Virus record (IMG/VR): IMGVR_UViG_3300020005_000004
Coordinates: 4,336-68,335 of that record
Strand: one strand, 5' to 3'
Source: a virus
Length of the DNA stretch: 64,000 nucleotides
Below the pieces are notes generated by a model. It worked only from the letters and a program-made list of their open reading frames with translations. It did not search any database and was not told the DNA's origin. Each line of letters opens with the position of its first letter. The first letter of the stretch is position 1. Below, piece by piece: positions 1-60,261 of the stretch. The position numbers and the translations under genes are program-made.

Positions 1-22
1 TCCAGAGGGCTTAATAGCTACA

Positions 23-1289: not shown

Positions 1290-1300
1290 AAATTAAAATT

Positions 1301-2339: not shown

Positions 2340-2562
2340 AAAATTAAAGGATCAGGCAAAGTTCAAACTTTCAAAAAGAAGTAAAGTTATTTATACTAAA
2401 CAAACCAAGTGGAGAAGATCCGGAGGGTTGATGGCTTATGTCTTTACTTCTGATTCAAGCGGATTGACTTTTAAACGGGTGGGAAGTGTGAAAGTATGGC
2501 TTGTAGAGTTCATGGTAAATAAATCAACTGGATCAACGGTTGCAAGAAAACAAAAGAAATGA
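2320..2562 (+). CDS. Basic hypothetical protein
   Basis: ORF overlapping neighbours; absent from copy B. Confidence 0.5.
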   Translation: MTQTTLRKLKDQAKFKLSKRSKVIYTKQTKWRRSGGLMAYVFTSDSSGLTFKRVGSVKVWLVEFMVNKSTGSTVARKQKK

Positions 2563-3137: not shown

Positions 3138-3152
3138 TTTCTACTTCCTTTC

Positions 3153-3284
3153 TTAATTAAAAACATGAAGCACTTTATCCAAGAATAAAAACATACCGTA
3201 AGCGCATAGCGTTCCAAGTATAAAGGCTATATATCCTTTTATCATTGTTTTTTGTAGGTTATTCATTCTACGATCCTTTTTCAT
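3153..3284 (-). CDS. 43-aa membrane peptide (not in ORF track)
   Basis: MKKDRRMNNLQKTMIKGYIAFILGTLCAYGMFLFLDKVLHVFN preceded by AAAGGAGG. Confidence 0.5.
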   Translation of the reverse strand: MKKDRRMNNLQKTMIKGYIAFILGTLCAYGMFLFLDKVLHVFN

Positions 3285-6150: not shown

Positions 6151-6461
6151 ATACTTGGTTTATTTGGTAGTGGCATTGATTTTAATCTTTCTAAATATTT
6201 TATCACATTCCAATAAGCTATATCCATGTCAGTATGGTTTTCGGAATTTGCCGTAACCCATGTTTTCAATTCTGCAATTAAATCTTCAACCCTCGTCAAT
6301 CCCTGCCTATTGAGGGAGGCGGCAAACATGGCATCAATTATCGCTTGGTAAACATTTGGTGTCGTTCCTTTGCATCTTAGCCAATCCCAATGAGGAACTT
6401 CAATAGCCAAAAGAATTGATTCCAATTCGTCATATTTTTTATCTTCAATAGTAGGTGTCAT
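6147..6461 (-). CDS. Hypothetical protein
   Basis: MTPTIE start shared with 52699..53082; ASLNRQG shared with 52156..52695. Confidence 0.65.
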
Positions 6462-6979
6462 AGTCTTTTATTGTTTGTATCGTTAAAATTCAATCTTGCA
6501 AATTCTCCATAATACTTTATTGCCGCTTTATCGTATGCTTTTGCAGCTTCTTCTTTAGTTGCGAAACATCCCAAATGTATTTGATTGCGCTTGTAGCCTA
6601 TTTTTGCTGACCATGTTTTACATCTGGCATCTTTACATATTCCTTTAAAACCAAGTTTATTTTCTTTAGTCTTACTACGATTTGCCTGATTTTGGCCATT
6701 GGTTGCTTTCCTTAGATTTGATTTTTGATTATTTAATCCATTTAGGTCTCTATGATCTACGGCTATTTTATTACCTTTTAATTTCATTATTTCTCTGTGC
6801 ATAAAAACCTTTCTTCTTTTAACGTTTGGCAAAATAGAACACCTATAAGCATAATCACTCGTTCTATTTTTAAACCTTGTTATGTGCCAATTAAATTGAT
6901 TTAAGTATTCATAATCTTCATCATCAACAAGTATTTCAACTGCTGCGTATTTTTTAGCGAATGACAGTATTTTTTTCAT
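6458..6979 (-). CDS. HNH-AP2 homing endonuclease
   Basis: [31 protein letters not shown]...EEAAKAYD; start set at MKKIL. Confidence 0.88.
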
Positions 6980-7259
6980 ACGGCTTTTTAAGTGTGAACA
7001 AAAGATATGATCCTTCTGTGTTTTTTGAAATATTGTACTTATAACCGAAAACCTCATTAAACAATTCAATTTTATCAGCCATTAAAATAGGTGAACAATC
7101 AACTTCAATTCCTATAATGTTCTCAGAAGGTGATTCACGGCGAATCCTTATTGTGTATCTGGAAAGGATTAAAGCCGATTGTAATACTTCGTAAGCAAGG
7201 TTACCCTTTAGAACGCTGAATGAATCCTGAACGCTTACGGTTGTTTTTAAATTTAGCAT
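6954..7259 (-). CDS. Hypothetical protein
   Basis: [10 protein letters not shown] start identical to 53392..53727, remainder unrelated. Confidence 0.65.
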
Positions 7260-7287
7260 GGTTTTAATTTTTTGGTTTGTTAATAAA

Positions 7288-7320
7288 AGTCGGAGCTTAC
7301 TTTCGATTCAGCCCCGAACT
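7288..7320 (-). promoter_or_regulatory. RNA hairpin with AAUCGAAAGUA apex in the leftward early transcript
   Basis: Same apex but a different stem at 53986-54012. Confidence 0.6.
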
Positions 7321-7328
7321 CTAACTAT

Positions 7329-7562
7329 TTAAGATTTGTAATAAATGATTCCAATTCTTTCGTTGTTTGATTTTCTGCTAAACCAAATATGGCTGCCACC
7401 CCTACCAAAATGAAGTCCAGATTTATTAATAATGCCAGAAAATTGTAGCTCTAATATCAAATAATCTCCATTTATATCGCAATTAGTTTTTGATACATAC
7501 GAAAACAATGGGCTTAAGAATCTAAACTTTTCAGATTCTATTTTAAAAGATTTAGTTGTCAT
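7329..7562 (-). CDS. First gene of the leftward operon, hypothetical
   Basis: Start reassigned to MTTKSF, just downstream of the predicted promoter. Confidence 0.6.
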   Translation of the reverse strand: MTTKSFKIESEKFRFLSPLFSYVSKTNCDINGDYLILELQFSGIINKSGLHFGRGGSHIWFSRKSNNERIGIIYYKS

Positions 7563-7592
7563 TTTGTTAGAGTTTAATTGTGAATGATGATG

Positions 7593-7686
7593 CAAATTAA
7601 ACAGTCTTTTTGATATTGCCAAATATTTGTCATAAAAAAAATATTTTGTCAAATTGTGCGGAATATGAAAACTTTCATTATCTTCG
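7593..7686. promoter_or_regulatory. Divergent promoter region (copy A)
   Basis: Minus strand TTTG-N19-TTAATTTG (7623-7593); plus strand TATCTTCG at 7679; CTTTTTGATATT.CCAAATA shared with 54301-54320. Confidence 0.6.
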
Positions 7687-7690
7687 TCAA

Positions 7691-7861
7691 ATGAAAGCAA
7701 TCAATAAAAAACAAGAAAAGAACTGGATCACTATCAAAATTGATCCCACTCTTTACGAATCTCTGAAGAAATATTGTACCGACAAAGGTTTAAAAGTTGG
7801 TCATTTCGCAGGGAAGGCAATCGAAAAGGAAATTACGATTTTAAACATGCAAAACGCCTAA
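7691..7861 (+). CDS. Ribbon-helix-helix-like regulator
   Basis: TIKIDPTLYESLKKYC...GLK...F...AI pattern; first rightward gene. Confidence 0.6.
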   Translation: MKAINKKQEKNWITIKIDPTLYESLKKYCTDKGLKVGHFAGKAIEKEITILNMQNA

Positions 7862-7862
7862 C

Positions 7863-8000
7863 ATGCTATATCTTTTTATCAGCTCCGTTTTAATCGTTTT
7901 TGTTTTTGCTTCTTATTTAATATTCAGGATTCGCATACATCGCAATGATTTAAGAAAGGCAAAGAGGCAATGGGATGATTCAGACAATATTTATTTATAA
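7863..8000 (+). CDS. 45-aa single-pass membrane peptide (not in ORF track)
   Basis: MLYLFISSVLIVFVFASYLIFRIRIHRNDLRKAKRQWDDSDNIYL; only two residues differ from 54601..54738. Confidence 0.8.
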   Translation: MLYLFISSVLIVFVFASYLIFRIRIHRNDLRKAKRQWDDSDNIYL

Positions 8001-8015
8001 CTTAAAAAACAAACC

Positions 8016-8906
8016 ATGAACGAATTAATTAAAATAACCGAATTTGCTCCGGTTGAAAAAAGGATGCAGGAAGCGGGTTTTTCTATTGAGAAGGTAAAAC
8101 AGGAAGTTTCCTTTGCCCTTCAGTTAATCAATAAGTCTGCACAACTTCAAAAATGCTCTAAAGAATCACTTCAGCAAGCAGTTTTAAACATTTCAAATAT
8201 TGGGCTTTCACTTAACCCTGCGGCAAAAGAGGCGTATTTAATACCAAGATGGAACGGGGCTTTAAAGATAATGGAGGCGAGTTTAGAACCTGGATATGTC
8301 GGGCTTGTTAAACTCCTTACAGATGCGGGATCGGTTAAGTCAATGGTCTGCCAACTTGTTTACGATGGCGATACTTTTGAAATTGACTTAGCTAATAATA
8401 TGCAGCCAGTAACTCACAAACCGGAACTTTCAAGGGCTAAGAAAGGGAATATCAAAGGAGCTTACGCTTTAGCTACGTTAATTGACAATACCCGCCAAGT
8501 TGAATTTATGGACGTTGAAGAAATTGATGGCATTAGAGGCCGTTCAGAGACCTATAAAGCCTACCTTGAAAACAAGATAAAATCCTGCACTTGGGTTTCA
8601 GACTACGGGGAAATGGCAAGGAAAACGGTTATAAAGAGAATTTACAAGTATTTGCCAAGAACCGAAAGGATGGATCAGATTGACGAGGCAATAAAACAGG
8701 ATAACTCAGATTTTACGGCTTCCGATTCTCAGGTTTACTATATCGAAAATTTACTGAATAATTCAACCTTAGAAGAAAGGCAGAGGGCGCAAATAGAAAT
8801 GGAACTTCCGGTTATGGGATCACAAAGGGCAAACGAAGTGATAAATATGCTTAAAATGAATCAGCAACTTTCAGATAAAGAAACATTAAAAAGGATTCAG
8901 TCATGA
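8016..8906 (+). CDS. recT: RecT-family single-strand annealing protein
   Basis: GLSLNP...AYLIP, GY.GL, GAYA and EMARKTVIKR..KYLP motifs. Confidence 0.88.
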   Translation: MNELIKITEFAPVEKRMQEAGFSIEKVKQEVSFALQLINKSAQLQKCSKESLQQAVLNISNIGLSLNPAAKEAYLIPRWNGALKIMEASLEPGYVGLVKLLTDAGSVKSMVCQLVYDGDTFEIDLANNMQPVTHKPELSRAKKGNIKGAYALATLIDNTRQVEFMDVEEIDGIRGRSETYKAYLENKIKSCTWVSDYGEMARKTVIKRIYKYLPRTERMDQIDEAIKQDNSDFTASDSQVYYIENLLNNSTLEERQRAQIEMELPVMGSQRANEVINMLKMNQQLSDKETLKRIQS

Positions 8907-9256
8907 TAATCCTTCCTGCACAACTTGACGGGCTTAGAACTTTAGCGGATAAAACCCTAAAGATAACTTTTGAAACTCAGGAGTTAAACCCGCAGGACCT
9001 TTTAGGTCTGATGGAAAATATGCACCAATTTGGCTACTTGGCTTTCAAAAAAGAACCATTCAAAGAAGATGAAAAAGAAATGCTCCAGGAGTTGAAATCA
9101 GATTTTGAATTTAAAGGAAAAACCAGTTCGCAAAGATTACGATCCGTACTCTATGTAATGTTTCAGAATAATAACGAGGGCTTTGATAGTTCGGTTAAAC
9201 ACTATGAGCATTGGATGGAAAGGATAATTACTCAAATGAAAACTAAATTACCCTGA
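8903..9256 (+). CDS. Conserved phage hypothetical protein
   Basis: KT.SQRLR.VLY motif. Confidence 0.65.
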   Translation: MIILPAQLDGLRTLADKTLKITFETQELNPQDLLGLMENMHQFGYLAFKKEPFKEDEKEMLQELKSDFEFKGKTSSQRLRSVLYVMFQNNNEGFDSSVKHYEHWMERIITQMKTKLP

Positions 9257-9627
9257 TGGCAAAAGTAAAATCATTAAAAGGGTTAAAGAAAAAAGCGATC
9301 ACCGTTTTTAATAAGTGGATTCGTGTAAGGGACAAAAACAAAGGCTGTATTTCCTGCGGTGGTGGCGTTCACAATGCAGGACATTTTTATCATGGTCATA
9401 TTTATTCAGCCCTTCAGTTTAATGAGGTCAATGTTCAGGGGCAATGCGTTCATTGTAACTTATCGAAAGCTGGGAATGAAAAAGGATTCAGACAAGGACT
9501 TATAAGACGTTACGGACAGGATAAAGTTGATCTGTTGGATTCAGCAGCAAGGCACAGAAAGGTTTGGACAGAAGTTGAATTAACTTTTATAATAAATCAT
9601 TACAAATGCCAGGAGTTATCAAATTAA
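9256..9627 (+). CDS. ninG: NinG/Rap-like recombination nuclease
   Basis: FN.WIR.RD...CISCG, AGH, F.E.N..GQC..CN. Confidence 0.85.
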   Translation: MAKVKSLKGLKKKAITVFNKWIRVRDKNKGCISCGGGVHNAGHFYHGHIYSALQFNEVNVQGQCVHCNLSKAGNEKGFRQGLIRRYGQDKVDLLDSAARHRKVWTEVELTFIINHYKCQELSN

Positions 9628-9800
9628 TAAAATGGGCTATGACAGTAAAAAAAGTTCATTACTATTCTACTAAAGAATGGAAGTCAATAGTGGAAAGTTG
9701 GATAAAATTATATGGTGATAGCATTGATACTTATTTTATTCACATAGTTCCAGACAGGCAAACGGATAGATTTTTAGAAACCAAAAACAAATCAAAATGA
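9606..9800 (+). CDS. Hypothetical protein
   Basis: VHYYSTKEWKS and YFIHIVPDR shared with 56617..56817. Confidence 0.7.
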   Translation: MPGVIKLIKWAMTVKKVHYYSTKEWKSIVESWIKLYGDSIDTYFIHIVPDRQTDRFLETKNKSK

Positions 9801-10270
9801 AGCTAATACCACTTACACAGGGGCAGTTTGCGATGGTTGACGATGATGATTATGATGAATTATCAAAGTTTAAATGGCAAGTATATACAAGCAAAAGACA
9901 TATCATGTATGCCATAAGAACTACTCCAGATGATAAAACTGTTTATATGCACAGGTCTATTTTGAAAATAACTGATCGTTATCTTTTTACAGATCATAGA
10001 GATCATAATGGATTGAATAACCAAAAAGATAATCTAAGAAAAGCTACAATGGCAGAAAATAATGCTAATAGAAGAAGGTTTAAAAAGGGTACATCAATTT
10101 ATCGTGGCGTTTGGTTTGATTCTTATTATGGCGTTTACAAAGTGCAAATATCAGAGAATGGCAGGAAGGTACATTTAGGCCGGTTTAAAAATGAAATTGA
10201 TGCGGCAAAAGCATATAATGAAGCGGCTATTAAATACCATAAAGAATTTGCATTTTTAAACGAAGTTTGA
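9797..10270 (+). CDS. HNH-AP2 homing endonuclease
   Basis: LTQGQFAMVDD, DHRDHNGLNNQK.NLR, HLGRF..E.DAAKAYN. Confidence 0.9.
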   Translation: MKLIPLTQGQFAMVDDDDYDELSKFKWQVYTSKRHIMYAIRTTPDDKTVYMHRSILKITDRYLFTDHRDHNGLNNQKDNLRKATMAENNANRRRFKKGTSIYRGVWFDSYYGVYKVQISENGRKVHLGRFKNEIDAAKAYNEAAIKYHKEFAFLNEV

Positions 10271-10363
10271 TTCAAGAGGAAAACCCTGACCTTCGGGGAA
10301 CGGTGAATGAGGCAAGGCAAAAGGAAGGGGAGGAAGTAAGAAAACAAATTAAAAATTAAATAT

Positions 10364-10621
10364 ATGAAACTTGATATATCTGGAGTTATCACCACAAATA
10401 ACCCCGAAAAGATAAACCACAATTCATCAATCATGGTTTATACAAATAGGATTAGTGGAATACTTAGCCATAAGATGTGCATTGAAATAGTAAATGAGAA
10501 AGGCGAAGATATTAATGATTCTATTTGCATGGAGTTTAATAAAAATGAAGCGTTATATTTAATGAAGTTTCTATCAGCTTTTATTGCTGAAAAAGATATT
10601 GATATTAATGAAGAGGATTAA
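10364..10621 (+). CDS. Hypothetical protein
   Basis: A-rich start, operon position. Confidence 0.55.
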   Translation: MKLDISGVITTNNPEKINHNSSIMVYTNRISGILSHKMCIEIVNEKGEDINDSICMEFNKNEALYLMKFLSAFIAEKDIDINEED

Positions 10622-10623
10622 AA

Positions 10624-11025
10624 ATGGCAACCTACTATGACCCTAATTGGTTTAATTACTGTGTTGCTTGCCGAAAACATAAGACTTGGTATAATTTTAA
10701 AGATTTGGCAAGAGGAAAAGAAGGGGTTTGTTTAAGATGTCAAGATAGACAAAGTAAAAATATTATAATATTAAAACTCGATAGACTGTTAACAATTGCT
10801 ATGAAAAATAAAATGTCCGATTTGAGAAACCACCTCTTTGAAACGATTGAATCTTTAAGAGACAATTCAATTACTCCAGAAAAAGCAAAAGCGGTTTGTG
10901 AGGTTGCACAGGTGATAATAAATTCCGCAAAGGTTGAATTAGATTTTTTAAAGGTTATCGGTGGAAAGAAAAGTGATTTTTTACAAATAGAAGATAAAGA
11001 ACTTACAAATGGAAAAGATTCTTAA
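10624..11025 (+). CDS. Hypothetical protein, Cys-rich N-terminus plus LRNHLF..IE.L domain
   Basis: Two CxxC motifs; internal Met at 10801 may start a separate protein. Confidence 0.6.
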   Translation: MATYYDPNWFNYCVACRKHKTWYNFKDLARGKEGVCLRCQDRQSKNIIILKLDRLLTIAMKNKMSDLRNHLFETIESLRDNSITPEKAKAVCEVAQVIINSAKVELDFLKVIGGKKSDFLQIEDKELTNGKDS

Positions 11026-11290
11026 ACTCATAGTTTTTATCGCAATAATATTTGCTATCTTTTGTTCTTGCAGTAAAACAGAAATCAAAACCGAAGGCCA
11101 ATGTTTAATTATTTCTTTGAAGTACACAACTCAAAAGGCATTTTTAAAAACCGATACTCTTTACAACGATTACCTTACCGGACATTGGTTCCAGGTGTTT
11201 GTTGAGAATAAGAAGATTTGGGATTTAGACACAGGTTTTAGGGTTTGTGATCGGGATTTATTTGAGAGAAGAATTTATATTATAAAATGA
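11009..11290 (+). CDS. Lipoprotein
   Basis: Signal peptide ending FCSC. Confidence 0.6.
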   Translation: MEKILKLIVFIAIIFAIFCSCSKTEIKTEGQCLIISLKYTTQKAFLKTDTLYNDYLTGHWFQVFVENKKIWDLDTGFRVCDRDLFERRIYIIK

Positions 11291-11835
11291 AAGTATTAAT
11301 AGCTTGTGAAGAAAGCCAAGTAGTTTGTAAAGCCTTCAGAGAAAAAGGGCATGAGGCGTTTAGTTGTGATATACAAGACTGTTCCGGCGGTCATCCTGAG
11401 TGGCATATTAAAGACGATATTTTTAATGTTATTTATCAGGATTGGGATTTAAGAATAGGTTTCCCGCCATGCGATCATTTAGCTGTTTCAGGCGCAAGGT
11501 GGTTTGAAGAAAAAAGAAAGGACGGAAGGCAGCAAAAGGGAATTGAATTCTTTTTAAGGCTTGCAGAGGTTTGTAATGCGATTGAAAACCCAATAGGAAT
11601 AATGAGTTCTTTATTCAGGAAACCGGATCAGATAATTCAGCCCTGGCAATTCGGTCATGGAGAAACGAAGGCAACTTGTCTTTGGTTGAAAGGATTGCCA
11701 TTACTTAAAGCAACAAACGAAGTAACCGGGCGAGAAGGCAGGATTTGGCGAATGGCTCCTGGACCTAACAGATCAAAAGAACGATCAAAAACCTTTAGCG
11801 GAATTGCGGAAGCAATGAGTTTGCAATGGGGATAA
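11287..11835 (+). CDS. Short phage-type putative DNA cytosine methyltransferase
   Basis: VLIACEES, FPPC, IENP and RSKTF.GIAEAM..QWG motifs. Confidence 0.75.
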   Translation: MKVLIACEESQVVCKAFREKGHEAFSCDIQDCSGGHPEWHIKDDIFNVIYQDWDLRIGFPPCDHLAVSGARWFEEKRKDGRQQKGIEFFLRLAEVCNAIENPIGIMSSLFRKPDQIIQPWQFGHGETKATCLWLKGLPLLKATNEVTGREGRIWRMAPGPNRSKERSKTFSGIAEAMSLQWG

Positions 11836-11842
11836 AATAAAT

Positions 11843-11968
11843 TTTGTTTACTAACTGTTCTTTTATAAATTAGCGTTGAATTTTAGCCGGGTGCATCGGT
11901 TGAGATGGAAACTCGTAATGGGCTTTAAGGCGTAGGGATGCACCCCCGAAACCTTAAAGCCTTTTTTA
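11843..11968 (+). promoter_or_regulatory. Promoter plus two-hairpin leader/attenuator of the replication gene
   Basis: TTTG-N19-TAAATTAG; hairpins 11885-11901 and 11921-11961 followed by a T run. Confidence 0.7.
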
Positions 11969-11978
11969 ATTTAACTGC

Positions 11979-12659
11979 ATGGCTGAAGGAAAAAATAAAA
12001 TAATAGTCTATAAGGATTGGATTAAAAAATTTGAAGCCCTTAAAGATGTTGAGGCCGGTAAATTAATCAAACACTTCTTTCGTTATGTAAACGATCTAAA
12101 CCCTGTGGCTCCTGACAGGATAACTGAGCTTTCGTTTATTGACATTGAACAAACACTTAAAAGGGATTTAAAGAAGTGGGAAAGTTTTGTTGAAAAACAA
12201 TCTGAAAATGGTAAAAAAGGCGGCAGACCTGAAAACCCAAAAGAACCCAAAGAAAGCCAAATAACCCAAGCCTTAAATAATAAACCCAAAAAAGCCGTTA
12301 TTGATAATGTTATTGTTATTGATAATGATACTAAAATACAGAATATAGATATAGACTTCGCTTTGGAACTTCCAGAAATGAAAATTAATAACGCAATCGA
12401 ATATTTAAGCAGAACCAGAAAAACGGAAGCTGATCGTGACTTAGTGTTAACCCTATGGACTGCATTTAAAGAAAAGAATTTCACCGGCGAAAAATTTTAC
12501 AAATCTGAGGCTAAAATATTTGGACACTTTTTTGAAACTTTAAAATTTGAAAAAATAAATGGACATCCAAAAACTCAAACAAGCAATAGACACAAGGGAG
12601 CCATGCAACTTGTCTCAAATCTCAAACAAAATTACACCGGAAGAAAAGAAGATTCTTGA
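11979..12659 (+). CDS. Putative replication initiator (DUF6291-like N-terminus)
   Basis: AG.L.K....YVND.NP, LKRDLKKW, NGKKGGRP; paralog of 59617..60261. Confidence 0.7.
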   Translation: MAEGKNKIIVYKDWIKKFEALKDVEAGKLIKHFFRYVNDLNPVAPDRITELSFIDIEQTLKRDLKKWESFVEKQSENGKKGGRPENPKEPKESQITQALNNKPKKAVIDNVIVIDNDTKIQNIDIDFALELPEMKINNAIEYLSRTRKTEADRDLVLTLWTAFKEKNFTGEKFYKSEAKIFGHFFETLKFEKINGHPKTQTSNRHKGAMQLVSNLKQNYTGRKEDS

Positions 12660-13083
12660 ACTTAAATATTCCGGCAAAAGGTTTGGACAAATGCAGCCCG
12701 TTGAAATATTAGAATCTGCTCAGCAAGTTCTTTTAAGGGTTCATGTAATTGCAGGATGGGTAATGCCAGCCGATGAACTTGTGGCAATCCTGGTTGATGA
12801 GTTCTCAAAAAAAATAGTAGAATCTTATCCAAATGTTACGGCTGAAGAAATTGCTTATGCTTTTAGATCGGAAGGTTATAAGGTTAAAGAATGGGGAAAG
12901 GCTTTAAACATTGGATTGATTGATGAAGTCATGGTCCCGTACTTGGAAAAAAGATTTGAATTAAGCAGGTTTGAAGAACAAAAAAAACAGATAGAATACA
13001 AACCTGACCTTGCACAAATAGAAAAAGAATATCAGGATTTTTTACAAACCGATTTAGGCAAACAATTAAATCCTAAAATATGA
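12559..13083 (+). CDS. Putative replication accessory (helicase loader/inhibitor-like) protein
   Basis: Follows the initiator; C-terminus shared with 60191..60712. Confidence 0.5.
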   Translation: MDIQKLKQAIDTREPCNLSQISNKITPEEKKILELKYSGKRFGQMQPVEILESAQQVLLRVHVIAGWVMPADELVAILVDEFSKKIVESYPNVTAEEIAYAFRSEGYKVKEWGKALNIGLIDEVMVPYLEKRFELSRFEEQKKQIEYKPDLAQIEKEYQDFLQTDLGKQLNPKI

Positions 13084-13412
13084 CTAAAGAAATGTTTGAA
13101 TGGATTACAGCATGGCAGCGTGAAAAGTTCACCAAAGCCACGTCAATGAGTGCCGCCAATCATCTAAATGAAGAAATTAAAGAATTGTTATGTGAACTTA
13201 ACGACGGGCAAACCGGATTTTTTTCTGACAATCAAAAAGAGAAAATTAAAAAAGAGTATGCAGATTGTTTTCTGTTGCTATTCGGTTCTGCATCACTATT
13301 TGGGCTATCCTATGAAGATATTTGCAAAGCAATCAATGATAAAATGGAAATAAATAAAGCCCGTAAATGGGGCGAAGTTAATGAGCAAGGTTATGTAAAA
13401 CATATTGATTAA
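13080..13412 (+). CDS. MazG-like dATP/dGTP pyrophosphohydrolase (DUF550-like)
   Basis: HL.EEI.E, EYADC, KMEINKARKW. Confidence 0.8.
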   Translation: MTKEMFEWITAWQREKFTKATSMSAANHLNEEIKELLCELNDGQTGFFSDNQKEKIKKEYADCFLLLFGSASLFGLSYEDICKAINDKMEINKARKWGEVNEQGYVKHID

Positions 13413-13468
13413 AGGATACGCAAAGACAGATTTAATTTTTTCTGACATACTAAAAATAAGAAAATGAA

Positions 13469-13864
13469 ATGCCAATAGACTACAAAGAATATCATCCTGA
13501 ATGGAAAACAAAGATTCGTCCTGATATTTTAGAAAGGGATAATCATTGTTGTAAATTTTGCAAAGTGAAAAACCACAGTATAATTCACAGAACAGGCAAA
13601 GGGATGAATGATTGGTTTTACTGGCCGGAAGGAATGGAAAGCGAAGCATGGACTTTGGACGGGTTAAAAAGCACAAAAATTGTTTTAACTATTGCACATC
13701 TTGACCACGACAAAACTAATAACGATTATGAAAACCTTGCAGCCCTTTGTCAAAAATGCCACTTAGGAATAGATTTAAAACATCACATGAAAAACGCAAG
13801 AGAGACAAACGAAAAGAAGAAAAAACTTCAAAGATTATTCGATGAAAGCAATCAGAATATATAG
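13469..13864 (+). CDS. HNH endonuclease
   Basis: C.FC, LTIAHLDH...N....NLAALCQKCH. Confidence 0.85.
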   Translation: MPIDYKEYHPEWKTKIRPDILERDNHCCKFCKVKNHSIIHRTGKGMNDWFYWPEGMESEAWTLDGLKSTKIVLTIAHLDHDKTNNDYENLAALCQKCHLGIDLKHHMKNARETNEKKKKLQRLFDESNQNI

Positions 13865-13867
13865 CGC

Positions 13868-14230
13868 ATGAATATAAGCGAATGGGTACATAAGAAGAAC
13901 GACAACAATATTTCCGATGGGGAGTTTTTAAAAATATTAGATCAGGCTACTTTAAATTTCGGACAAGAATGTTTAATTACTTATTCAAAGTCGTACCAGG
14001 AAAACCCCAAAGCATTTATAAACTCGTTTATCAAATTCGATTCAGCAAAAATGGCTTGCCAGTATGTGATTAAATACGCAAGAAAGGAAGGCATTTTAAA
14101 AGAGTTGGAAGGGCAGAAAGATTTCACAGAATGGGTTAATAAACAAAGAATAGATGAAAAATGGAAACTCGTGCTTAGTGAATTATTATTGATAATTTGG
14201 GGCGCAACAAAAGACGAAAACCCAATTTAG
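13868..14230 (+). CDS. Hypothetical protein
   Basis: Operon position. Confidence 0.55.
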   Translation: MNISEWVHKKNDNNISDGEFLKILDQATLNFGQECLITYSKSYQENPKAFINSFIKFDSAKMACQYVIKYARKEGILKELEGQKDFTEWVNKQRIDEKWKLVLSELLLIIWGATKDENPI

Positions 14231-14280
14231 GGCGAATTTCTTACCTTAGTGTTTCACGTGGAACAATCTGTGAAACAACT

Positions 14281-14574
14281 GTGAATAAAAAACCCCGTTT
14301 AGAAAACCTAAAACCCTTTAAAAAGGGACACGACGAAAGGCGAAACATGAAGGGTGCGCCAAAACTTCCAAACCTTGAAGAGTTAATGGCTGAAGTTTTA
14401 GATGAACAAAAAGACGGCAAAACGGCAGCGCAACAAATCTTAGCCAAACTGGTTGCAAAGGCAATTAAAGGAGACATAAGAGCCGCAGAAGTATTATTTG
14501 ATCGTGGTTATGGCAGGGCAAAACAGGCTATTGATTTAAACGTTAAAGAAACGGACGTTGATTTTACTTTCTAA
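14281..14574 (+). CDS. Terminase small subunit (DUF5681-like)
   Basis: NLKPFKKG...N.KG.P, A.KGD..A...LFDR.YG; coupled to TerL; GTG start inferred. Confidence 0.7.
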   Translation: MNKKPRLENLKPFKKGHDERRNMKGAPKLPNLEELMAEVLDEQKDGKTAAQQILAKLVAKAIKGDIRAAEVLFDRGYGRAKQAIDLNVKETDVDFTF

Positions 14575-15830
14575 TGAAGATAAAAACTCCCCAACTATCC
14601 GACTATCAGAAGCAAATGATAGACTCCCCTTTAAACACAATCACAGAAGCAGGGACTAAAATAGGCAAAACGGTTTCGCATATGTGGTGGTTATTCAGGG
14701 AAGCTCAACAACCCCATGTTCAGGTCGGTTGGAATTATTGGTGGGTTGCTCCAATCAATGAACAGGCTAAAATCGCTTTTAACCGTATTTGTGCTAAGAT
14801 TAAGGGCAATCCGAACTACACGATTTACAATTCCTCACCGTACACGATAGTGACCCCTAAAGGCACTAAAATCGTTTTCAGGTCAGGTGACGATCCTGAT
14901 TCACTTTACGGAGAGGATGTTTACGGGGTAGTTATTGACGAAGGATCAAGGATGAAGGAAGGTGCTTTTCATGCTATCCTTTCTACGACAACAGCGACAA
15001 ACGGACGAATAAGGTGTATAGGAAACATGAGAGGGATTGATAATTGGTACTATCAGTTAGCAAGAAAGGTTCAGGACGGACTTTTGCCAACTTGGGAGCA
15101 TTTTAAGTTCACGGCTGACGATGCGGTTAAAGCCGGAATACTCACACAAGAGAAAATTGATGAACAAAGGGCAATTTATCCGGAAGGGATATTTTTAGAG
15201 TTGTTCTTTTGCATACCATTCATCAATATGGGTAATAGGTTTGCTTTTTCTTTCAAGACAGATAAGCACGTTTCAGAAACAAAGTTCAATCCAGAATACC
15301 CGCTTTACCTTTCGTTTGACTTTAATCGTAACCCGATTTGTTGTGCAGTTTTTCAACACTACTCAGATAGGATATTTGGGATAGAATCTATCAAATTACC
15401 TAACTCAGATATTTACCGGCTTTGCGATACGATAAAAATGAAATATCCGAAAGCCCTTTTAATTGTCAATGGTGATGCAACAGGTCAAGCAAGTTCAGCA
15501 CTCGTAAAAGATAATTTGAATTACTATAAAGTGATCAGGACACAATTAAACCTTAGTCCTAATCAAATAAAAATACCTACGGTTAATCCTGGCATTGCAG
15601 AAAATCAGGTCTTGGTAAACTCAATGCTTGAGCATTATCGCATAAGTTTAGACCCTACTAATTGTGCTCCTCTCATTCACGATCTTCAGTTTGTGGAAAT
15701 GCTTCCTGATGGCTCAATTAAAAAGGGTGACAGGGAAGACCCGAACCAACAGGCAGACAGTTTGGATTGCTTCAGATATTACCTTAATGCAAATTTTAAA
15801 TGGTTTCTTAAAACTTGGCAAGGAAATTAG
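14574..15830 (+). CDS. terL: Terminase large subunit
   Basis: Walker A variant GTKIGKT, VIDE Walker B, SFDFN nuclease start, D..D..RY. Confidence 0.92.
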   Translation: MKIKTPQLSDYQKQMIDSPLNTITEAGTKIGKTVSHMWWLFREAQQPHVQVGWNYWWVAPINEQAKIAFNRICAKIKGNPNYTIYNSSPYTIVTPKGTKIVFRSGDDPDSLYGEDVYGVVIDEGSRMKEGAFHAILSTTTATNGRIRCIGNMRGIDNWYYQLARKVQDGLLPTWEHFKFTADDAVKAGILTQEKIDEQRAIYPEGIFLELFFCIPFINMGNRFAFSFKTDKHVSETKFNPEYPLYLSFDFNRNPICCAVFQHYSDRIFGIESIKLPNSDIYRLCDTIKMKYPKALLIVNGDATGQASSALVKDNLNYYKVIRTQLNLSPNQIKIPTVNPGIAENQVLVNSMLEHYRISLDPTNCAPLIHDLQFVEMLPDGSIKKGDREDPNQQADSLDCFRYYLNANFKWFLKTWQGN

Positions 15831-15842
15831 TATATTTACTCT

Positions 15843-16127
15843 ATGAATATTCATATCCACATACATCACCATAACAATGATGGTGAGGATATCCTAAAAA
15901 TTTTAAAATTAATTAAAATGGAACAATCAGAATTAGCCGCACAATTAACAGCACTACAAACACAAACTGAAAAAGCCAAAGCCGAAATTCTTTCTAAGAT
16001 CGCTGACCTTGAAGGAGCTTTAGACGCAGCCGATGACGTTACTCCTGAAGTTCAGGCAGCTTTCGATGCACTTAAAGCAAGTGTTCAGGGTGTTGACGAT
16101 ATTGTTGCTGACGCTCCAACTACTTAA
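15843..16127 (+). CDS. His-rich N-terminus coiled-coil protein
   Basis: IHIHIHHH then acidic coiled coil; two ORFs occupy this slot in copy B. Confidence 0.65.
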   Translation: MNIHIHIHHHNNDGEDILKILKLIKMEQSELAAQLTALQTQTEKAKAEILSKIADLEGALDAADDVTPEVQAAFDALKASVQGVDDIVADAPTT

Positions 16128-16149
16128 AACTTTTTGTGGTTAATGGTTT

Positions 16150-16360
16150 TTTGAAACCGGATATTTCCATATTCGGTTTTTTGTATTATATTTAAATCTG
16201 ATAAGAGAAGGGGTTAGAGCCTTCCCTACAGTCAACTTCTGATCCCTCCCTATTTCCATAGGGAGATTCTTTTTAGAGTAAAGCGGTTAGTTACCGTTTT
16301 CATAAACTTGGTTTGTTTTAATAGTAAAGTCGAATTGTTTCTACATTTCGGCTTTTTTGT
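16150..16360 (+). other. Multi-hairpin intergenic region (terminators or structured RNA)
   Basis: At least four inverted repeats; first ~115 bp identical to 63884-64000. Confidence 0.6.
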
Positions 16361-16372
16361 TACCTTAGACAA

Positions 16373-16540
16373 ATGACTGATGTAGCAATTATAAAAGAAG
16401 AAATTGAAAGAAGGATAAGAGAATATGAAAATACTGCTGAAGAATGTTTTCAGGAATTAGACAATGAAGAAAGAGGCAATGCTTATTTAGACAGGGCAGC
16501 GGAATTAAAATCACTACTTGAATACATCTACAACTTATGA
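16373..16540 (+). CDS. 55-aa acidic hypothetical protein (not in ORF track)
   Basis: ATG at 16373 after TACCTTAG; ATGA overlap with 16537. Confidence 0.6.
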   Translation: MTDVAIIKEEIERRIREYENTAEECFQELDNEERGNAYLDRAAELKSLLEYIYNL

Positions 16541-17184
16541 TTTGTTTCAATTTCGCTTCTCGCTCTCGACCTACCAAATTCTACGAATGCTTAGATAATA
16601 TCCGTCAATTCATTTCAGATAAAGATTATTTTGTACTTGCTAAACTTGATAATAACGATAGGGAAATTGAAAGCTACAAAGCAAGATTAAACGATTACCC
16701 AGAAGTTATTCCCGTCTTTGGGATCAGTCAAAGTAAGATTCATGCAATCAATAGATGGTTAGAAGGCGTTAATTTTGACATTCTTTGTAATCATTCGGAC
16801 GATATGTTTTTTATCAAGAAAGGATTCGACATGGTAATTAAAGAACATTGTACCGATGATACGTTTATACATTTCCCCGATGCCAAAACAACTTTATGCA
16901 CTTATTCGATCATGGATAAGATTTATTTCAGTAGATTTAATTATGTTTACAACCCGGCTTATAGAAATCTTTGGTGTGATAATGAAGCTATGGAAGTTGC
17001 AAAGAGACTCGGAAGATATAAGTTTGTTGATGAGAAAATATTAGAACATAGGCATCCGGCGAACGGTTTCGGAAGGCCGGATATGCAGTACAGGAAAACA
17101 GAGGCAACTTATCACATAGACAAAAGGACTTTTGATATAAGGGAACGAAATAATTTTGGATTACCAATAAAACAAACCACATGA
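16537..17184 (+). CDS. GT-A fold glycosyltransferase
   Basis: SRSRP, SKIHAINR, SDDM, WCDNE, EHRHP. Confidence 0.78.
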   Translation: MICFNFASRSRPTKFYECLDNIRQFISDKDYFVLAKLDNNDREIESYKARLNDYPEVIPVFGISQSKIHAINRWLEGVNFDILCNHSDDMFFIKKGFDMVIKEHCTDDTFIHFPDAKTTLCTYSIMDKIYFSRFNYVYNPAYRNLWCDNEAMEVAKRLGRYKFVDEKILEHRHPANGFGRPDMQYRKTEATYHIDKRTFDIRERNNFGLPIKQTT

Positions 17185-17555: not shown

Positions 17556-17699
17556 ATGAAAATAATAATCTACATCATCGCACTAATTTTCTTTTGTTTC
17601 TCTTGCTATAAAGCAGTAGTACATGAAGATTTAATTGCTATTTTTTTCATGGTAGCGACAATCGCAATACTTAAATTAGGAGAGAATCGTCCGGCTTGA
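17556..17699 (+). CDS. 47-aa membrane peptide (not in ORF track)
   Basis: MKIIIYIIALIFFCFSC...; stop overlaps the next start. Confidence 0.5.
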   Translation: MKIIIYIIALIFFCFSCYKAVVHEDLIAIFFMVATIAILKLGENRPA

Positions 17700-18247
17700 T
17701 TTACAAACTCGCAATATTAATTTGTTCTTTGGAAGAAAGACAGGATAAACTTGCCCGACTGATAGAATCTATTCCTTCCCATCCTGATTTAATAATCATT
17801 CCAGAAGTGGATAACAGAGAAATAACCACAGGAGCAAAAAGGAACAAGTTATTACAAAGGGCTTTGGATATTGGGGCTGAATACGTTTCTTTTGTCGATG
17901 ACGATGATAAATTAGATATTGAGTATGTTGCTGAAATGATGAAAGCTATCGAACAAAAGCCGGATGCAATAGGTTTTAAAGGATGGATCACTTTTGACGG
18001 TAAGAATAAAACAGAATGGAGAATTTCAGTAAGATACCCTTATGAAAAGCGGGGAAATGTTTATCTTAGGTATAATAATCATCTTTCCCCAATAAAGACA
18101 GAATTGGCTTTGCAAATTAAATATCCTGATATTACTTTTGGCGAGGACTATGATTATGCTAAGAGGTTAAAGGAAGCGGGACTTGTGCAGAAGGAAGTAT
18201 TTGTAAATAAACATCTTTACCATTACGATTATATAACGAAGAAATGA
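17696..18247 (+). CDS. GT2-family glycosyltransferase
   Basis: GAKRNKLL, FVDDDD, FGED motifs. Confidence 0.85.
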   Translation: MIYKLAILICSLEERQDKLARLIESIPSHPDLIIIPEVDNREITTGAKRNKLLQRALDIGAEYVSFVDDDDKLDIEYVAEMMKAIEQKPDAIGFKGWITFDGKNKTEWRISVRYPYEKRGNVYLRYNNHLSPIKTELALQIKYPDITFGEDYDYAKRLKEAGLVQKEVFVNKHLYHYDYITKK

Positions 18248-18921
18248 AGCTGCAATTACCGAGTGTTACTTGTATGATAATTGACAGCGTAAACGCAAAA
18301 GGCGCAATAAATGTTTTAGAGCATTGTAAAAACCTTTGTGACTTCGGGGCGGTAAAACTTCTTACAGACATTGAAATAGATTACGAGCATAAAGTAACGA
18401 TCCCTAAACTCAATTCTTTAGTTGCTTATTCTATTTTTATGCTGACGAAGTGTAAAGATTACTTTGATACTGACCATGTTTTAATCGTTCAAAGGGATGG
18501 CTTTATTTTAAATCCTGAATCCTGGAATCCGGCATGGTTAGAATACGATTACATTGCTCCCTTGTTTCAGCAAATGGACAGAGTGGGTTCGGGTGGATTC
18601 AGTTTAAGGAGTAAGAAAGTAATGGAAAGGCTTGCCGAAATTACTCCAGAGTGGGATTGGTCGCAAGGGCAAGCTGACACGATTCAGAAGATAATGGGGT
18701 ATTATGAAGATGGCGTAATTAGCTTATCGGGGCAAGGATTTAATATTGCTCCATTGCACGAAGGGGCTAAATTTGCACAGGGGGGAAATGAGAATCTTGC
18801 CTACTATGTAGAAAAACCATTTGGTTTTCACAGAACTTCTCAGTACATTGACTTTAATACGGGACAGGTTAGTTCTTCTTATGAGAACTTTTTTCAGCAA
18901 TACGAATTAGAAATCAAATGA
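18244..18921 (+). CDS. DUF5672-like putative glycosyltransferase
   Basis: L.VQ.DG, YDYI.P, VG.GGFSLRS, ED, FGFH. Confidence 0.8.
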   Translation: MKLQLPSVTCMIIDSVNAKGAINVLEHCKNLCDFGAVKLLTDIEIDYEHKVTIPKLNSLVAYSIFMLTKCKDYFDTDHVLIVQRDGFILNPESWNPAWLEYDYIAPLFQQMDRVGSGGFSLRSKKVMERLAEITPEWDWSQGQADTIQKIMGYYEDGVISLSGQGFNIAPLHEGAKFAQGGNENLAYYVEKPFGFHRTSQYIDFNTGQVSSSYENFFQQYELEIK

Positions 18922-19061
18922 AAATAGAAGTAAGGTATAAATCTCAGGGTAAAGTAAAAGGGAAAACCTATGTCTATACTACAAACAGTTTTTTTAAATT
19001 CATATCAATTTGGTGGGTTGCAAGACGGAGCAAGGCCGAAGCGGTATTAACTTATTTCTGA
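18918..19061 (+). CDS. 47-aa basic peptide (not in ORF track)
   Basis: Start and stop both overlap neighbouring genes. Confidence 0.45.
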   Translation: MKIEVRYKSQGKVKGKTYVYTTNSFFKFISIWWVARRSKAEAVLTYF

Positions 19062-19918
19062 TGATTTACTTAGAGAAAAACGATATTCATTGCACTCTCA
19101 CGACATATATCTATTGTCATATGTGGATGCTTTGGTCATTTGAGCAGAGGGGTATCAATGATGTTTATATAAGTTGGCCTATTGGTAAATCGGTTAAATC
19201 TTACGAGGATAAAGATTGGTTTAATAATTGGGGTAATCAGTTTGAATGGTATTTTAATCAACCAAAAGGCTGTCACGATTATTGCACTAAAGCAGATGAA
19301 ACTTATACTTGGGAACATTGGATCGATCCGGTTTCACCTTCTTTCATGTCACAACCACTATCAGTAATAAAAGACTATTATAAAAAAAACCTACACTTCA
19401 ATGAAGAAACTAACAAAAGAGGTCAAGCCATTGTCGATAGATACAACATTGACTTCAGGAAAACTATTGGAATTACATGGCGAGGAACTGATATCTATCT
19501 TGATGGAAGGCCAAGAATCCCGATTGAAAGATATTTAAGATTCGTGGATGAGATTATGGAACGAAACCCAGACTTCAAAATTGCAGCAACTGCCGAAGAG
19601 GTTGGAATACTTGACCCGTTGCTTGCCCGATACCCCAATGCCTTTATTATAGAAGAATTTATTCAGGCTCCATTAAATTCAAAGAATAATCCAGAAAGGT
19701 TTTCTCCGGTTAGCGGTTACGAGAGGGGCTTGCAGCCTGTGTTAATGGTTTGGCTATTCAGTAAGTGTAAACATTACATTAAGAACAGAAGTTCAACAGG
19801 GGCGGTTGCAAGTTGGTTAAGCGATGGAAGGATAGTGAATATTGCACATGAAGAAACTTTATCTTATTTAAAAATGGACGATCAGGTAGAAATTGAAGGA
19901 ATAAAATATCCGTTATGA
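19061..19918 (+). CDS. NodZ/fucosyltransferase-like GT-B glycosyltransferase
   Basis: IGITWRGTD, AT.E, FSKC..YI...SS. Confidence 0.7.
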   Translation: MIYLEKNDIHCTLTTYIYCHMWMLWSFEQRGINDVYISWPIGKSVKSYEDKDWFNNWGNQFEWYFNQPKGCHDYCTKADETYTWEHWIDPVSPSFMSQPLSVIKDYYKKNLHFNEETNKRGQAIVDRYNIDFRKTIGITWRGTDIYLDGRPRIPIERYLRFVDEIMERNPDFKIAATAEEVGILDPLLARYPNAFIIEEFIQAPLNSKNNPERFSPVSGYERGLQPVLMVWLFSKCKHYIKNRSSTGAVASWLSDGRIVNIAHEETLSYLKMDDQVEIEGIKYPL

Positions 19919-20469
19919 AAGTAGTTAATTCAAGAGAAGAATATTTAAAACAACTATCATTAGAATCGGGGATAGGTTATTGCTCTTTTGCTGAATTGGG
20001 TGTATATCATGGTGACTTCTCGGAAATGATTTTAAAAACTATTAAACCGAGTTGGCTTTGCTTAGTTGATCCTTATAAGAACGGAGTAGAAAAATATAAT
20101 AACGGTTTATCTACACAATATTCCACAGATGAAGATTACGATAAGCTGATTAAGAGATTTCCTAAAGAGATTTTAAAAGGTCAGATTTCGGTTTATAAAA
20201 TGCCCTCATATAATGCCGTAAGTTGTTTCCCTGACTTGTACTTTGATTTCATTTACCACGATGCAAGCCATTTGAAAGAAGACGTGAAAAGGGATTTATG
20301 GGAATGGTTGCCTAAATTAAAACTTGACGGAGTAATGTGTGGCCATGATATGATTGAACACGAAGACTTCGGCGTAATTGATGCGGTTGAAGATTTCTGT
20401 AATCAGTTCGGATTTAAGATATTTCTATATAACAAAAACGGAGGCGATTACGCTTTAAAAAGAATATGA
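19915..20469 (+). CDS. Class I SAM methyltransferase (Methyltransf_24-like)
   Basis: ELGV..G, DFIY.DA.H, G..CGHD. Confidence 0.85.
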   Translation: MKVVNSREEYLKQLSLESGIGYCSFAELGVYHGDFSEMILKTIKPSWLCLVDPYKNGVEKYNNGLSTQYSTDEDYDKLIKRFPKEILKGQISVYKMPSYNAVSCFPDLYFDFIYHDASHLKEDVKRDLWEWLPKLKLDGVMCGHDMIEHEDFGVIDAVEDFCNQFGFKIFLYNKNGGDYALKRI

Positions 20470-50273: not shown

Positions 50274-50296
50274 TCATGTGTTCCTCCTTTGGGGTT

Positions 50297-52695: not shown

Positions 52696-52698
52696 TGC

Positions 52699-59471: not shown

Positions 59472-59615
59472 TTTGTTTACTGGCTCTTTGTTTTTATATT
59501 AGCGTACTTATTTTTAGTACGGATTTTGCAGATGAAGAGTGAATCATTCGCAAAATCTTATTTCAAGATTAAATAGTCGGTAAAGGTTTCACTCCCTGAG
59601 CCGGCTTTTTTATTT
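59472..59615 (+). promoter_or_regulatory. Promoter plus two-hairpin leader/attenuator of the replication gene
   Basis: TTTG-N19-TATATTAG; hairpins 59522-59557 and 59575-59606 followed by a T run. Confidence 0.7.
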
Positions 59616-59616: not shown

Positions 59617-60261
59617 ATGGAAGGGAAAAAATCTTTCGTTCTTTATTCTGACATAATTCATACCGTCAAGAAACTACCTAATAACAAGGCGGGAGAACTG
59701 TTTAAATTAATCCTTTCCTATGTAAATGATGAAAACCCCACTACAAAAGATTTAGCCGTTGATCTTGCATTTGAGCCAATTAAACAGCAGCTTAAAAGGG
59801 ATTTAAAGAAATGGGATGATGAGAAAAAGCAAAGGAGTGAAGCCGGAAAAAAGGGTATGGAAAGTAGGTGGCATAACAAAAGTATAACAGAAGATAACGG
59901 TGTTAAAAGTGTTATAACGAAAATAACTGATAATGTAATTGTTAATGTAAATGAGAATGTAAGTACAATACAGAATATAGATATAGATCACAACTTGGAA
60001 CTTCCGGAAATGAAAATTAATAATGCAATCGAATATTTAAGCAGAACAAGAAAAACGGAAGCTGACCGTGACTTAGTATTAACCCTATGGACTGCATTTA
60101 AAGAAAAGAATTTCACCGGCGAAAAATTTTACAAATCAGAAGCTAAAATATTCGGACACTTTTTTGAAACTTTAAAATTTGAAAAAATAAATGGACATCC
60201 AATTACTTCAACAAAGCTTGGAACCAGCGAAGCAAGAAATAACGCAGTCACTAAGTGGTGA
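59617..60261 (+). CDS. Putative replication initiator (DUF6291-like N-terminus)
   Basis: KKSFVLY.D, AG.LFK.I..YVND; C-terminal block almost identical to 11979..12659. Confidence 0.72.
   Translation: MEGKKSFVLYSDIIHTVKKLPNNKAGELFKLILSYVNDENPTTKDLAVDLAFEPIKQQLKRDLKKWDDEKKQRSEAGKKGMESRWHNKSITEDNGVKSVITKITDNVIVNVNENVSTIQNIDIDHNLELPEMKINNAIEYLSRTRKTEADRDLVLTLWTAFKEKNFTGEKFYKSEAKIFGHFFETLKFEKINGHPITSTKLGTSEARNNAVTKW

Follow-up and report, generated by a model that had tools for sequence, protein, structure and literature searches.

Control of replication genes by loop-loop RNA interactions is textbook knowledge for plasmids and for a few coliphages. To our knowledge, such control is undescribed for the phages of Bacteroidota, or with a terminator's own loop as the cis partner. 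We analysed a stretch of viral DNA of 64,000 nucleotides (nt), positions 4,336 to 68,335 of IMG/VR record IMGVR_UViG_3300020005_000004 (the window), in which two DUF6291 replication genes are each preceded by a short leader. In both leaders, here called copies A and B, the apical loop of a 5′ hairpin (P1) is complementary to the apical loop of a terminator-like hairpin (P3). A literature search, limited in extent, found nothing on DUF6291 or on a leader element of this kind.

The closest described systems are found in plasmids. In pT181, pIP501 and pAMβ1, a separate antisense RNA kisses the rep leader and blocks the pairing of an antiterminator (the "preemptor"). The window leaders resemble these in having an intrinsic terminator directly 5′ of a replication-initiator gene, in their loop contacts and in the specificity of the paired words. 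In the present element, by contrast, a single leader supplies both partners from one strand, no consensus antisense promoter was found in the two large leader families (F1 and F2, below), and no alternative pairing with an arm of the terminator is evident, although no systematic search for alternative folds was made. In the repA-repZ leaders of IncB, IncIα and IncL/M plasmids, the target adjoins the ribosome binding site, and a pseudoknot activates translation that is coupled to a leader peptide and blocked by the antisense Inc RNA. Common to both is a replication-gene leader in which an upstream hairpin uses its loop to pair in cis with a distal sequence, but the target here is the loop of a terminator hairpin, and no conserved leader open reading frame (ORF) or antisense promoter was found. 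A preliminary description of this DNA had likened the leaders to the IncB/IncI systems; the cis loop pairing, with covariation, bears that out, while the partner beside the ribosome binding site and the coupled leader peptide are absent.

Several phage RNAs also invite comparison. The CI RNA of P4, the C4 RNA of phages P1 and P7 and the CA RNA of N15 are processed from the leaders of temperate phages and have two target sites (three elements in P4). Their action results in premature termination, and heteroimmune relatives differ by compensatory changes. They share with the window leaders the presence, in a phage leader, of complementary short sequences 5′ of replication or anti-immunity genes. 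Unlike them, the window leaders have just two partners, and no lysogeny genes were recognised among the ORFs tested; a third complementary element of the P4 kind was not found in the window, and the comparison with P4 and phage P1 in the preliminary description is an analogy. The put RNA of HK022 has no terminator and no loop-loop pairing, and lambda PR′-tR′ (6S RNA) needs the Q protein and no RNA fold. These resemble the present element as promoter-proximal structured or terminated leaders that head operons needing terminator read-through, but here the terminator belongs to the conserved fold. The packaging RNA (pRNA) of the phi29 family pairs 4-nt loops between molecules to form a ring on the prohead for DNA packaging. 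As in that RNA, two complementary loops change in concert from one related phage to another, amid otherwise diverging sequence; unlike it, the element here is a leader with a terminator. The terminator loops of the Escherichia coli small RNAs SdsR, RseX and ArrS, acting on fepA, have a regulatory role beyond termination, a trans effect that the part of the source available describes as "likely without base-pairing" (PMC11979758), whereas the contact described here is base-paired, covaries and lies in cis.

By analogy, the element would function like the RNA-controlled rep leaders of plasmids and the leader RNAs of P4, phage P1 and N15. It lacks the defining features of those systems that were tested, namely an antisense gene, a target adjoining the ribosome binding site together with a leader peptide, and a third site. 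What appears to be new is that a 5′ hairpin contacts, through its loop and in cis, the loop of the terminator itself, an arrangement seemingly widespread in Flavobacteriia-type phages. With such an element, phage biology would gain a well-supported class of RNA with a tertiary contact, a handle on the timing of early and middle genes in Flavobacteriia phages, for which our searches brought up no regulator of this sort, and a natural library of orthogonal kissing pairs joined to terminators. At least three cultured phage-host systems carry it, so tests with compensatory mutants are feasible.

Anatomy of the two window leaders

The leaders extend over 11866-11967 (copy A) and 59495-59611 (copy B) and share a common plan: a −7 box of Bacteroidetes type comes first, then a 5′ hairpin, then a G+C-rich hairpin followed by a T tract, and finally the ATG, which follows the terminator stem by 17 nt in copy A and by 11 nt in copy B. 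The apical loops are exactly complementary over 7 nt in both copies, and over 9 nt in copy A when the closing pairs are counted. The preliminary description had recognised this order of promoter, hairpin 1, terminator-like hairpin 2 and T tract before the ATG, and had pointed out the four complementary words; all are present in both copies as described, and folding places each word in an apical loop. Otherwise the leaders are unrelated in sequence, again as described, apart from a common promoter-like start, AAATTTTGTTTACT, which occurs exactly at 11839 and 59468 only. The features of the two copies are as follows.

11843..11846, + strand: possible −33 element TTTG of copy A, inside a 14-mer common to both copies (putative role)
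11866..11873, + strand: −7 box variant TAAATTAG of copy A (consensus TAnnTTTG), with a transcript start predicted near 11878
11883..11903, + strand: hairpin P1 of copy A, 7 bp, loop GGUGCAU at 11890-11896 (centroid fold)
11889..11897, + strand: 5′ loop-loop partner of copy A, GGGTGCATC (sequence)
11920..11967, + strand: terminator hairpin P3 of copy A (fold and terminator-site scan)
11937..11945, + strand: 3′ loop-loop partner of copy A, GATGCACCC (sequence)
11979..12659, + strand: DUF6291 replisome-organizer-like gene of copy A, 226 amino acids (Pfam PF19808, E 4.8e-21, 75.1 bits; PHROG)
59495..59502, + strand: −7 box variant TATATTAG of copy B (sequence and box scan)
59522..59557, + strand: hairpin P1 of copy B, 8+5 bp, loop AGAGUGAA at 59536-59543 (fold)
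59575..59611, + strand: terminator hairpin P3 of copy B (fold and terminator-site scan)
59617..60261, + strand: DUF6291 replisome-organizer-like gene of copy B, 214 amino acids (Pfam PF19808, E 1.9e-24, 86.1 bits; PHROG)

In copy A, a 16-nt spacer separates P1 from P3. The base stem of P3 pairs 11920-11930 with 11952-11962 (11 bp) and is followed by a 4x4 internal loop, an apical stem of 3 bp (11935-11937 with 11945-11947) and the loop AUGCACC at 11938-11944; the T tract, six T's, occupies 11962-11967, and the ATG is at 11979. Copy B has an additional small 5′ hairpin between the box and P1. Its P3 consists of a base stem (59575-59581 with 59600-59606), a 2x2 internal loop, an apical stem and the loop UUUCACUC at 59587-59594, with the T tract at 59607-59611 and the ATG at 59617. 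The loop words of copy B are GAGTGAA (59537-59543) and TTCACTC (59588-59594).

In both copies a G+C-rich hairpin is followed directly by a U tract, the sequence signature of an intrinsic terminator, and the −7 box, of the variant TAnnTTAG in each, lies a few bases 5′ of the first helix, as expected of a Bacteroidetes sigma-A promoter. In Flavobacterium psychrophilum the −7 box occupies −12 to −5, according to the portion of the source available (PMC9723704); by that spacing, the transcript would start a few bases before the first helix. The anatomy is thus that of a promoter-proximal terminated leader, in agreement with the preliminary description. The leader terminator was absent from the output of a sigma-70-type scan for promoters and terminators over 7000-17000, a result that is uninformative given that scan's loop limit of 3-8 nt for simple stems. 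Each leader also holds a mini-ORF, of 7 codons in copy A, stopping in the 5′ arm of the terminator stem (11904-11927), and of 14 codons in copy B, stopping just 5′ of the terminator hairpin (59532-59576). These mini-ORFs are probably due to chance, and are not conserved in other leader families.

The downstream genes had been called replication genes, and this label holds because of several concordant observations. Both products score well above the PF19808 cut-off of 27.2 bits. They have weak PHROG matches to "primosomal protein", to which a relative in a homologous locus (L042) adds "replisome organizer". Directly 3′ of the DUF6291 gene lies a DnaB-type helicase gene in that same locus and a primase gene in the Flavobacterium phage vB_FspS_tooticki6-1, and the DUF6291 gene of Olleya phage Harreka_1 is annotated "replication protein".

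Loop-loop complementarity and its covariation

The total folding energy of copy A is ordinary (z −1.17; 24 of 200 shuffles fold equally well), and that of copy B is moderately special (z −3.25; 2 of 200 shuffles equal it). The unusual feature of the leaders is the specific loop-loop match, rather than their folding energy. Counting both strands, the window contains 38 terminator-like sites. At only two of them, the two leaders, does the hairpin interior find a complement of 7 nt or more, with G+C in it, within the preceding 85 nt. No shuffle of the hairpin interior of copy A, out of 200, reached the 9-nt match. The 9-mer itself has exact copies in the window only at its two partners, and the search for a third target site returned six one-mismatch matches in the window, within chance expectation. 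The loop-loop complementarity in the window leaders is therefore not chance.

Protein-based searches of viral contigs gave 36 homologous loci and then the best 80 of 566 DUF6291 relatives, and the 150-200 nt upstream of each DUF6291 start were inspected. The same plan recurs in several sequence-unrelated architectures; at least six unrelated leader architectures share it, the three cultured phages listed further below included. They can be grouped as follows.

F1 (L010-L042): 5′ words GTAGGAG(T), GTCGGAG, GTGAGAG, GTGGTAG and GTGGAAG, each matched by its exact complement in the loop of the terminator
F2 (L050 and L110 types): P1 loop carrying the word, and a long terminator hairpin whose apical sub-hairpin holds the partner
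F3 (L046, L057, L123): pairing of the extreme 5′ segment within the terminator hairpin
F4 (L106, L111, L124): 5′ words GCAAATG and GTATATGA, L111 being weaker
Single leaders (L045, L098, L109, L112, L116): words of 7-10 nt

We compared cognate and non-cognate pairing among the 63 leaders, from 99 unique upstream regions of at least 140 nt, that have a G+C-rich stem and a T tract no more than 45 nt from the ATG. The best complement was at least 7 nt long in 57 of the 63 cognate leaders; among non-cognate combinations, 251 of 3556 reached that length. A TAnnTT[TA]G box was present 90-140 nt 5′ of the ATG in 54 of 64 leaders. When a stricter scanner was run over both strands of 102 non-redundant homologous loci (431.6 kb), 54 modules abutted the DUF6291 ATG and 7 more lay 60-700 nt upstream of it. 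Elsewhere the same scan gave 4 modules on the gene strand and 12 on the opposite strand, at least 5 of these 12 being the leader's own mirror image, with the kissing word or a P1 arm.

The alignments of F1 and F2 show that the two loops change together. In the 17 distinct rows of F1, every cell of the 7-bp kissing helix is paired (100%), and two of its seven pairs are changed on both sides (A-U to C-G or G-C; G-C to A-U). Hairpins P1 and P3 are paired in 95.4% and 86.0% of cells, with many compensatory pairs in each. The small spacer hairpin of F1 aligned poorly (56.5% paired), and we make no claim for it. A 14-mer scan for further F1 leaders gave 115 matches, of which 26 (16 unique) had the F1 architecture and the remainder were mostly chance; no new words were found, and cognate matches ran to 7-9 nt while non-cognate ones ran to at most 5 nt. 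For F2, the 18 rows from the protein-based search have an 8-bp helix that is 97.2% paired, with compensatory changes at five of the eight pairs. F2 sequences were then picked independently of pairing, with a pattern anchored only in the flanks, which alone found 106 stretches in viral contigs (102 with full context, 83 unique). At offsets preset from L050, these hold 14 word combinations and 12 distinct 5′ words, and the free positions are Watson-Crick paired in 485 of 498 cognate comparisons, as against 539 of 1068 non-cognate ones. Across the 66 distinct rows of this set, the 8-bp helix is 98.1% paired and six of its eight pairs are changed on both sides, with up to four pair types per position; the two invariant pairs are set by the search pattern. 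Sliding the partners by 1-3 columns lowers whole-structure pairing to 34-43% of cells. None of 500 shuffles reached the observed values in F1, and none of 500 equalled the observed covariation score in the 66 rows of F2, but these controls overstate significance because related sequences are not independent; a sounder basis is given by the slid-partner controls and by the variety of words (12 or more in F2 and 5 in F1, plus the unrelated architectures).

The stems also indicate which strand folds. G·U cells outnumber A·C cells by 30 to 5 in F1 and by 16 to 3 in F2, a bias to be expected solely when the sense-strand RNA folds. The kissing helix, by comparison, is strictly Watson-Crick (119 of 119 cells in F1, 140 of 144 in F2). 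On this evidence, which is comparative throughout, we conclude that the loop-loop pairing is real and is conserved as structure rather than as sequence, as the preliminary description had proposed. We do not claim diversifying selection on the loop words, the entropies of the kissing columns being similar to those of variable stem positions.

The leaders hold further regularities. Invariant single-stranded motifs stand beside the variable words: ACAUUAUA and AUGAAGU in F2 leaders, and CAUAGGU in F1 leaders. The two F2 motifs also occur in both cassettes of tooticki6-1 (see below), at different places (L127 2128-2240 and 1085-1190). These motifs could be sites of protein binding or of tertiary contacts. 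F1 leaders are always preceded by a small helix-turn-helix gene, sigma-70 region 4-like (for example, at about 2740-2885 in L031 and at 2452-2865 in L042); such a gene is found upstream of F1 and F4 only.

The preliminary description had suggested looking for an antisense RNA and for an Rfam family. Neither was found: no F1 or F2 leader has a minus-strand TAnnTT[TA]G box between −170 and +150, in a consensus scan that would pass over a non-consensus promoter, and a search of the whole window against Rfam 15 was empty at gathering score, as was one of 14 homologous loci at E<=1. At E<=10, just four far-sub-threshold matches fell in 11700-12100 (mir-3202 twice, snR56 and ST7-AS2_1). A hammerhead or other ribozyme had come to mind on account of GAAA motifs; Rfam gives it no support. 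Of the public sequencing runs listed, none is recorded as RNA; one, of low share, was guessed to be RNA.

By tblastn, DUF6291 was detected in 108 phage records, mostly of Flavobacterium phages, with others from phages of Cellulophaga, Olleya and Riemerella. The module was recognised in three cultured phages, one or two small ORFs 5′ of the DUF6291 gene in each.

Flavobacterium phage 11b: loop words CGGGCAGG and CCTGCCCG, read by eye (the scanner missed this phage)
vB_FspS_tooticki6-1: loop words GTGAGACG and CGTCTCAC
Olleya phage Harreka_1: loop words GTGGTGG and CCACCAC

A second cassette, with the words GTCGTCG and CGACGAC, lies at about 11590-11685 in tooticki6-1 (L365), directly 5′ of an HNH endonuclease gene; these two cassettes are the only boxed modules in its 36.9-kb genome. 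Two further loci (L147 and L183) likewise carry a second cassette with a different word, 2.4 kb 3′ of an F2 leader and directly upstream of HNH endonuclease genes. Of 106 F2-type contigs (875 kb), an additional boxed module is present in just 4; in 2 of the 4 it lies 5′ of an ORF whose N-terminus resembles, by eye, an HNH homing endonuclease. The cassette is mainly, not exclusively, linked to the replication operon.

How the leader may act

Across families, the order of parts is constant: a sigma-A-type box, P1 within a few bases, a short spacer (with a small hairpin in some), P3 and the U tract, whose end lies 10-45 nt before the next start codon. The P1 apical loop (in one family, the extreme 5′ segment) and the P3 apical loop form a tertiary helix of 7-10 bp that is strictly Watson-Crick and changes in a compensatory manner. 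Because the gap between U tract and ATG is too small for a promoter, the replication genes would be expressed solely by read-through, and this dependence in turn suggests an attenuator. From these sequence features, we think that the element is probably a structured 5′ leader, an RNA about 90-110 nt long that acts in cis at the head of the phage replication module as a transcription attenuator, which would set or gate expression of the replication genes.

Hairpin P1, hairpin P3 and the kissing helix are mutually compatible and all conserved, so we take the default state, proficient in termination, to be the kissed, compact, pseudoknot-like fold. For read-through, either partial leakiness or a factor that recognises shape instead of loop sequence would then be required, and the kissed fold could equally be the shape that such a factor recognises. 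The kiss could help termination or hinder it. Geometry may impose limits of its own. In F1, a 19-nt linker, itself able to form a hairpin, would have to join two stacks of about 28 bp in total, so that a head-to-head intramolecular kiss and the spacer hairpin may be mutually exclusive. In leaders with long terminator hairpins (F2 and both window copies), the internal loops could act as hinges.

A number of observations weigh against attenuation by a conserved leader of this kind. The covarying kiss reaches the P3 loop and at most its top 1-2 pairs; termination is driven by the base stem, with which the kiss would therefore not compete, and a simple switch between terminator and antiterminator is not apparent. 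The lack of G·U pairs in the kissing helix fits a kiss between RNA loops but would equally fit an inverted repeat in DNA. The module is missing from 41 of the 102 non-redundant loci, from all 18 non-redundant Bacteroides-type viral loci and from all 10 copies of DUF6291 examined in bacterial genomes; it is likewise missing from L001-L006, which are genome loci of Bacteroides and others. DUF6291 genes, found in 9 of 401 sampled Bacteroidia genomes, can thus do without the module. Among proteins encoded within 2-3 kb on either side, the only one that accompanies the various leader types and is absent from leaderless loci is DUF6291 itself. No conserved leader peptide was found across families; an in-frame upstream ATG in L050, for instance, is closed by stops in L058 and L110. 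Finally, the window's own leaders are nearly isolated. Copy B has a single, near-identical relative (L007), and copy A has none in the collections searched: a protein-based scan of viral contigs for its relatives gave copy-B-type and Bacteroides-type loci only, and a stem-anchored copy A pattern gave 3 matches in metagenome contigs, all unrelated by eye. For these two leader types, the case is mainly their own complementarity together with analogy to the other families.

Alternatively, the terminated RNA of about 90 nt could be the product itself, its loops pairing between molecules, either as a homodimer or as a free leader bound to a nascent one, with copy-number control or allele-specific exclusion as the outcome. 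Such action would parallel that of P4 CI RNA, of the C4 RNA of P1 and P7 or of the phi29 pRNA loops, and corresponds to the immunity and incompatibility proposal of the preliminary description. We regard this as rather unlikely. It would suit an element that has its own promoter and terminator and both ends in helices, that displays many loop words on like backbones (12 5′ words in F2) with poor non-cognate pairing (no more than 5 nt in F1), and that occurs with different words in the two cassettes of tooticki6-1 and in the two window copies; moreover, a head-to-head kiss within one molecule may be strained by the short linkers of some families, which would fit a symmetric dimer. Against it, complementary loops within one molecule most simply pair with each other, the kissing columns are no more variable than the stems, the window has no third target site, and no promoter follows the terminator, so that the downstream gene would still need read-through. 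Nor is a lysogenic setting for immunity evident: neither integrase nor CI was recognised among the tested ORFs, and, as noted, none of the 10 bacterial-genome copies carries the module. A particular form of intermolecular action, in which the terminated leader would be a self-addressed countertranscript that kisses nascent leaders with the same word, so that read-through falls as copies accumulate, would be allele-specific and need RNA only; we consider it quite unlikely. It would amount to plasmid-like copy-number control without an antisense gene, with exclusion groups set by a word of 7-8 nt, and at least 12 such words are seen on the one F2 backbone. The proposal of the preliminary description that allele-specific loops could define immunity or incompatibility groups has little support, the two large families (F1 and F2) also having no consensus antisense promoter.

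Control at translation is highly improbable in our estimation. Here the loop pairing would form a pseudoknot enhancer or gate of the IncB/IncIα type that governs ribosome access in the read-through mRNA. A loop does pair, with covariation, with a distal site 25-45 nt 5′ of the start codon of a replication gene, and other leader features could matter in Bacteroidia, which, in the part of the source available, do not use Shine-Dalgarno pairing (PMC9976891). Yet what the loop pairs with is another hairpin loop, ahead of a U tract, rather than an initiation region, the modules of the cultured phages and the second cassette precede other ORFs (a small ORF and an HNH endonuclease gene), and a conserved leader ORF was not found. 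It seems scarcely plausible, finally, that the feature acts as DNA, be it as a protein-bound inverted repeat (an operator or origin) or as a single-stranded hairpin origin beside the initiator gene. Such an origin would suit the position, and the strictly Watson-Crick loop words do form an inverted repeat; but the words sit exactly in the loops of stems whose many G·U and few A·C cells are strand-specific and hence point to RNA, the order of box, hairpins and U tract on the gene strand is fixed, and direct repeats (iterons) were not noticed in the leaders.

Genomic neighbourhood in the window

The record, of 68,335 bases, holds one complete phage genome and portions of two relatives in tandem, with a spacing of about 47.2-47.6 kb; the G+C content of the window is about 36%. 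The tandem segments (window 1-3200, 3300-50273 and 50274-64000) show mosaic similarity, with 75-100% identity in patches and numerous short patches (25-60 nt) at gene boundaries that are 100% identical. The arrangement could reflect tandem relatives, co-assembled relatives or a chimeric assembly.

Both leaders lie between early genes of the same strand on their 5′ side and the DUF6291 gene on their 3′ side. The upstream genes include RecT (8016), NinG (9256 and 56261), HNH endonucleases and DNA methylases (11287-11835 and 58399-59469); downstream of the DUF6291 genes come small ORFs, then the small and large terminase subunits and structural genes. The C-terminal halves of the two DUF6291 genes are 91% identical (12305-12570 vs 59936-60202), and the leader and N-terminal domain differ between the copies (11843-12300 vs 59470-59930). 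From this pattern, leader and N-terminal domain look like a single exchangeable module of replication specificity.

Neither an integrase nor a CI-type repressor turned up in the ORFs that were tested, so this may just be a lytic phage. A tRNA/tmRNA scan found none. An ORF of 133 amino acids at 10624-11025 (+ strand), just 5′ of the copy A methylase gene, matches phrog_2044, "RNA polymerase beta subunit" (E 5e-15), with no Pfam match; by this similarity its product might be a small RNA-polymerase-related protein. HNH endonuclease ORFs are spread throughout both phage copies, at 6458-7069 (− strand) and at 9797-10270, 13469-13864, 56886-57290 and 62930-63406 (all + strand), and two of them have an AP2 domain. 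Between the terminase and structural genes, 17696-22577 (+ strand) holds a run of glycosyltransferase and methyltransferase genes (Glycos_transf_2/TAGT-like, DUF5672, Methyltransf_24, STELLO-like and FkbM-type), which may be a module for DNA or surface modification.

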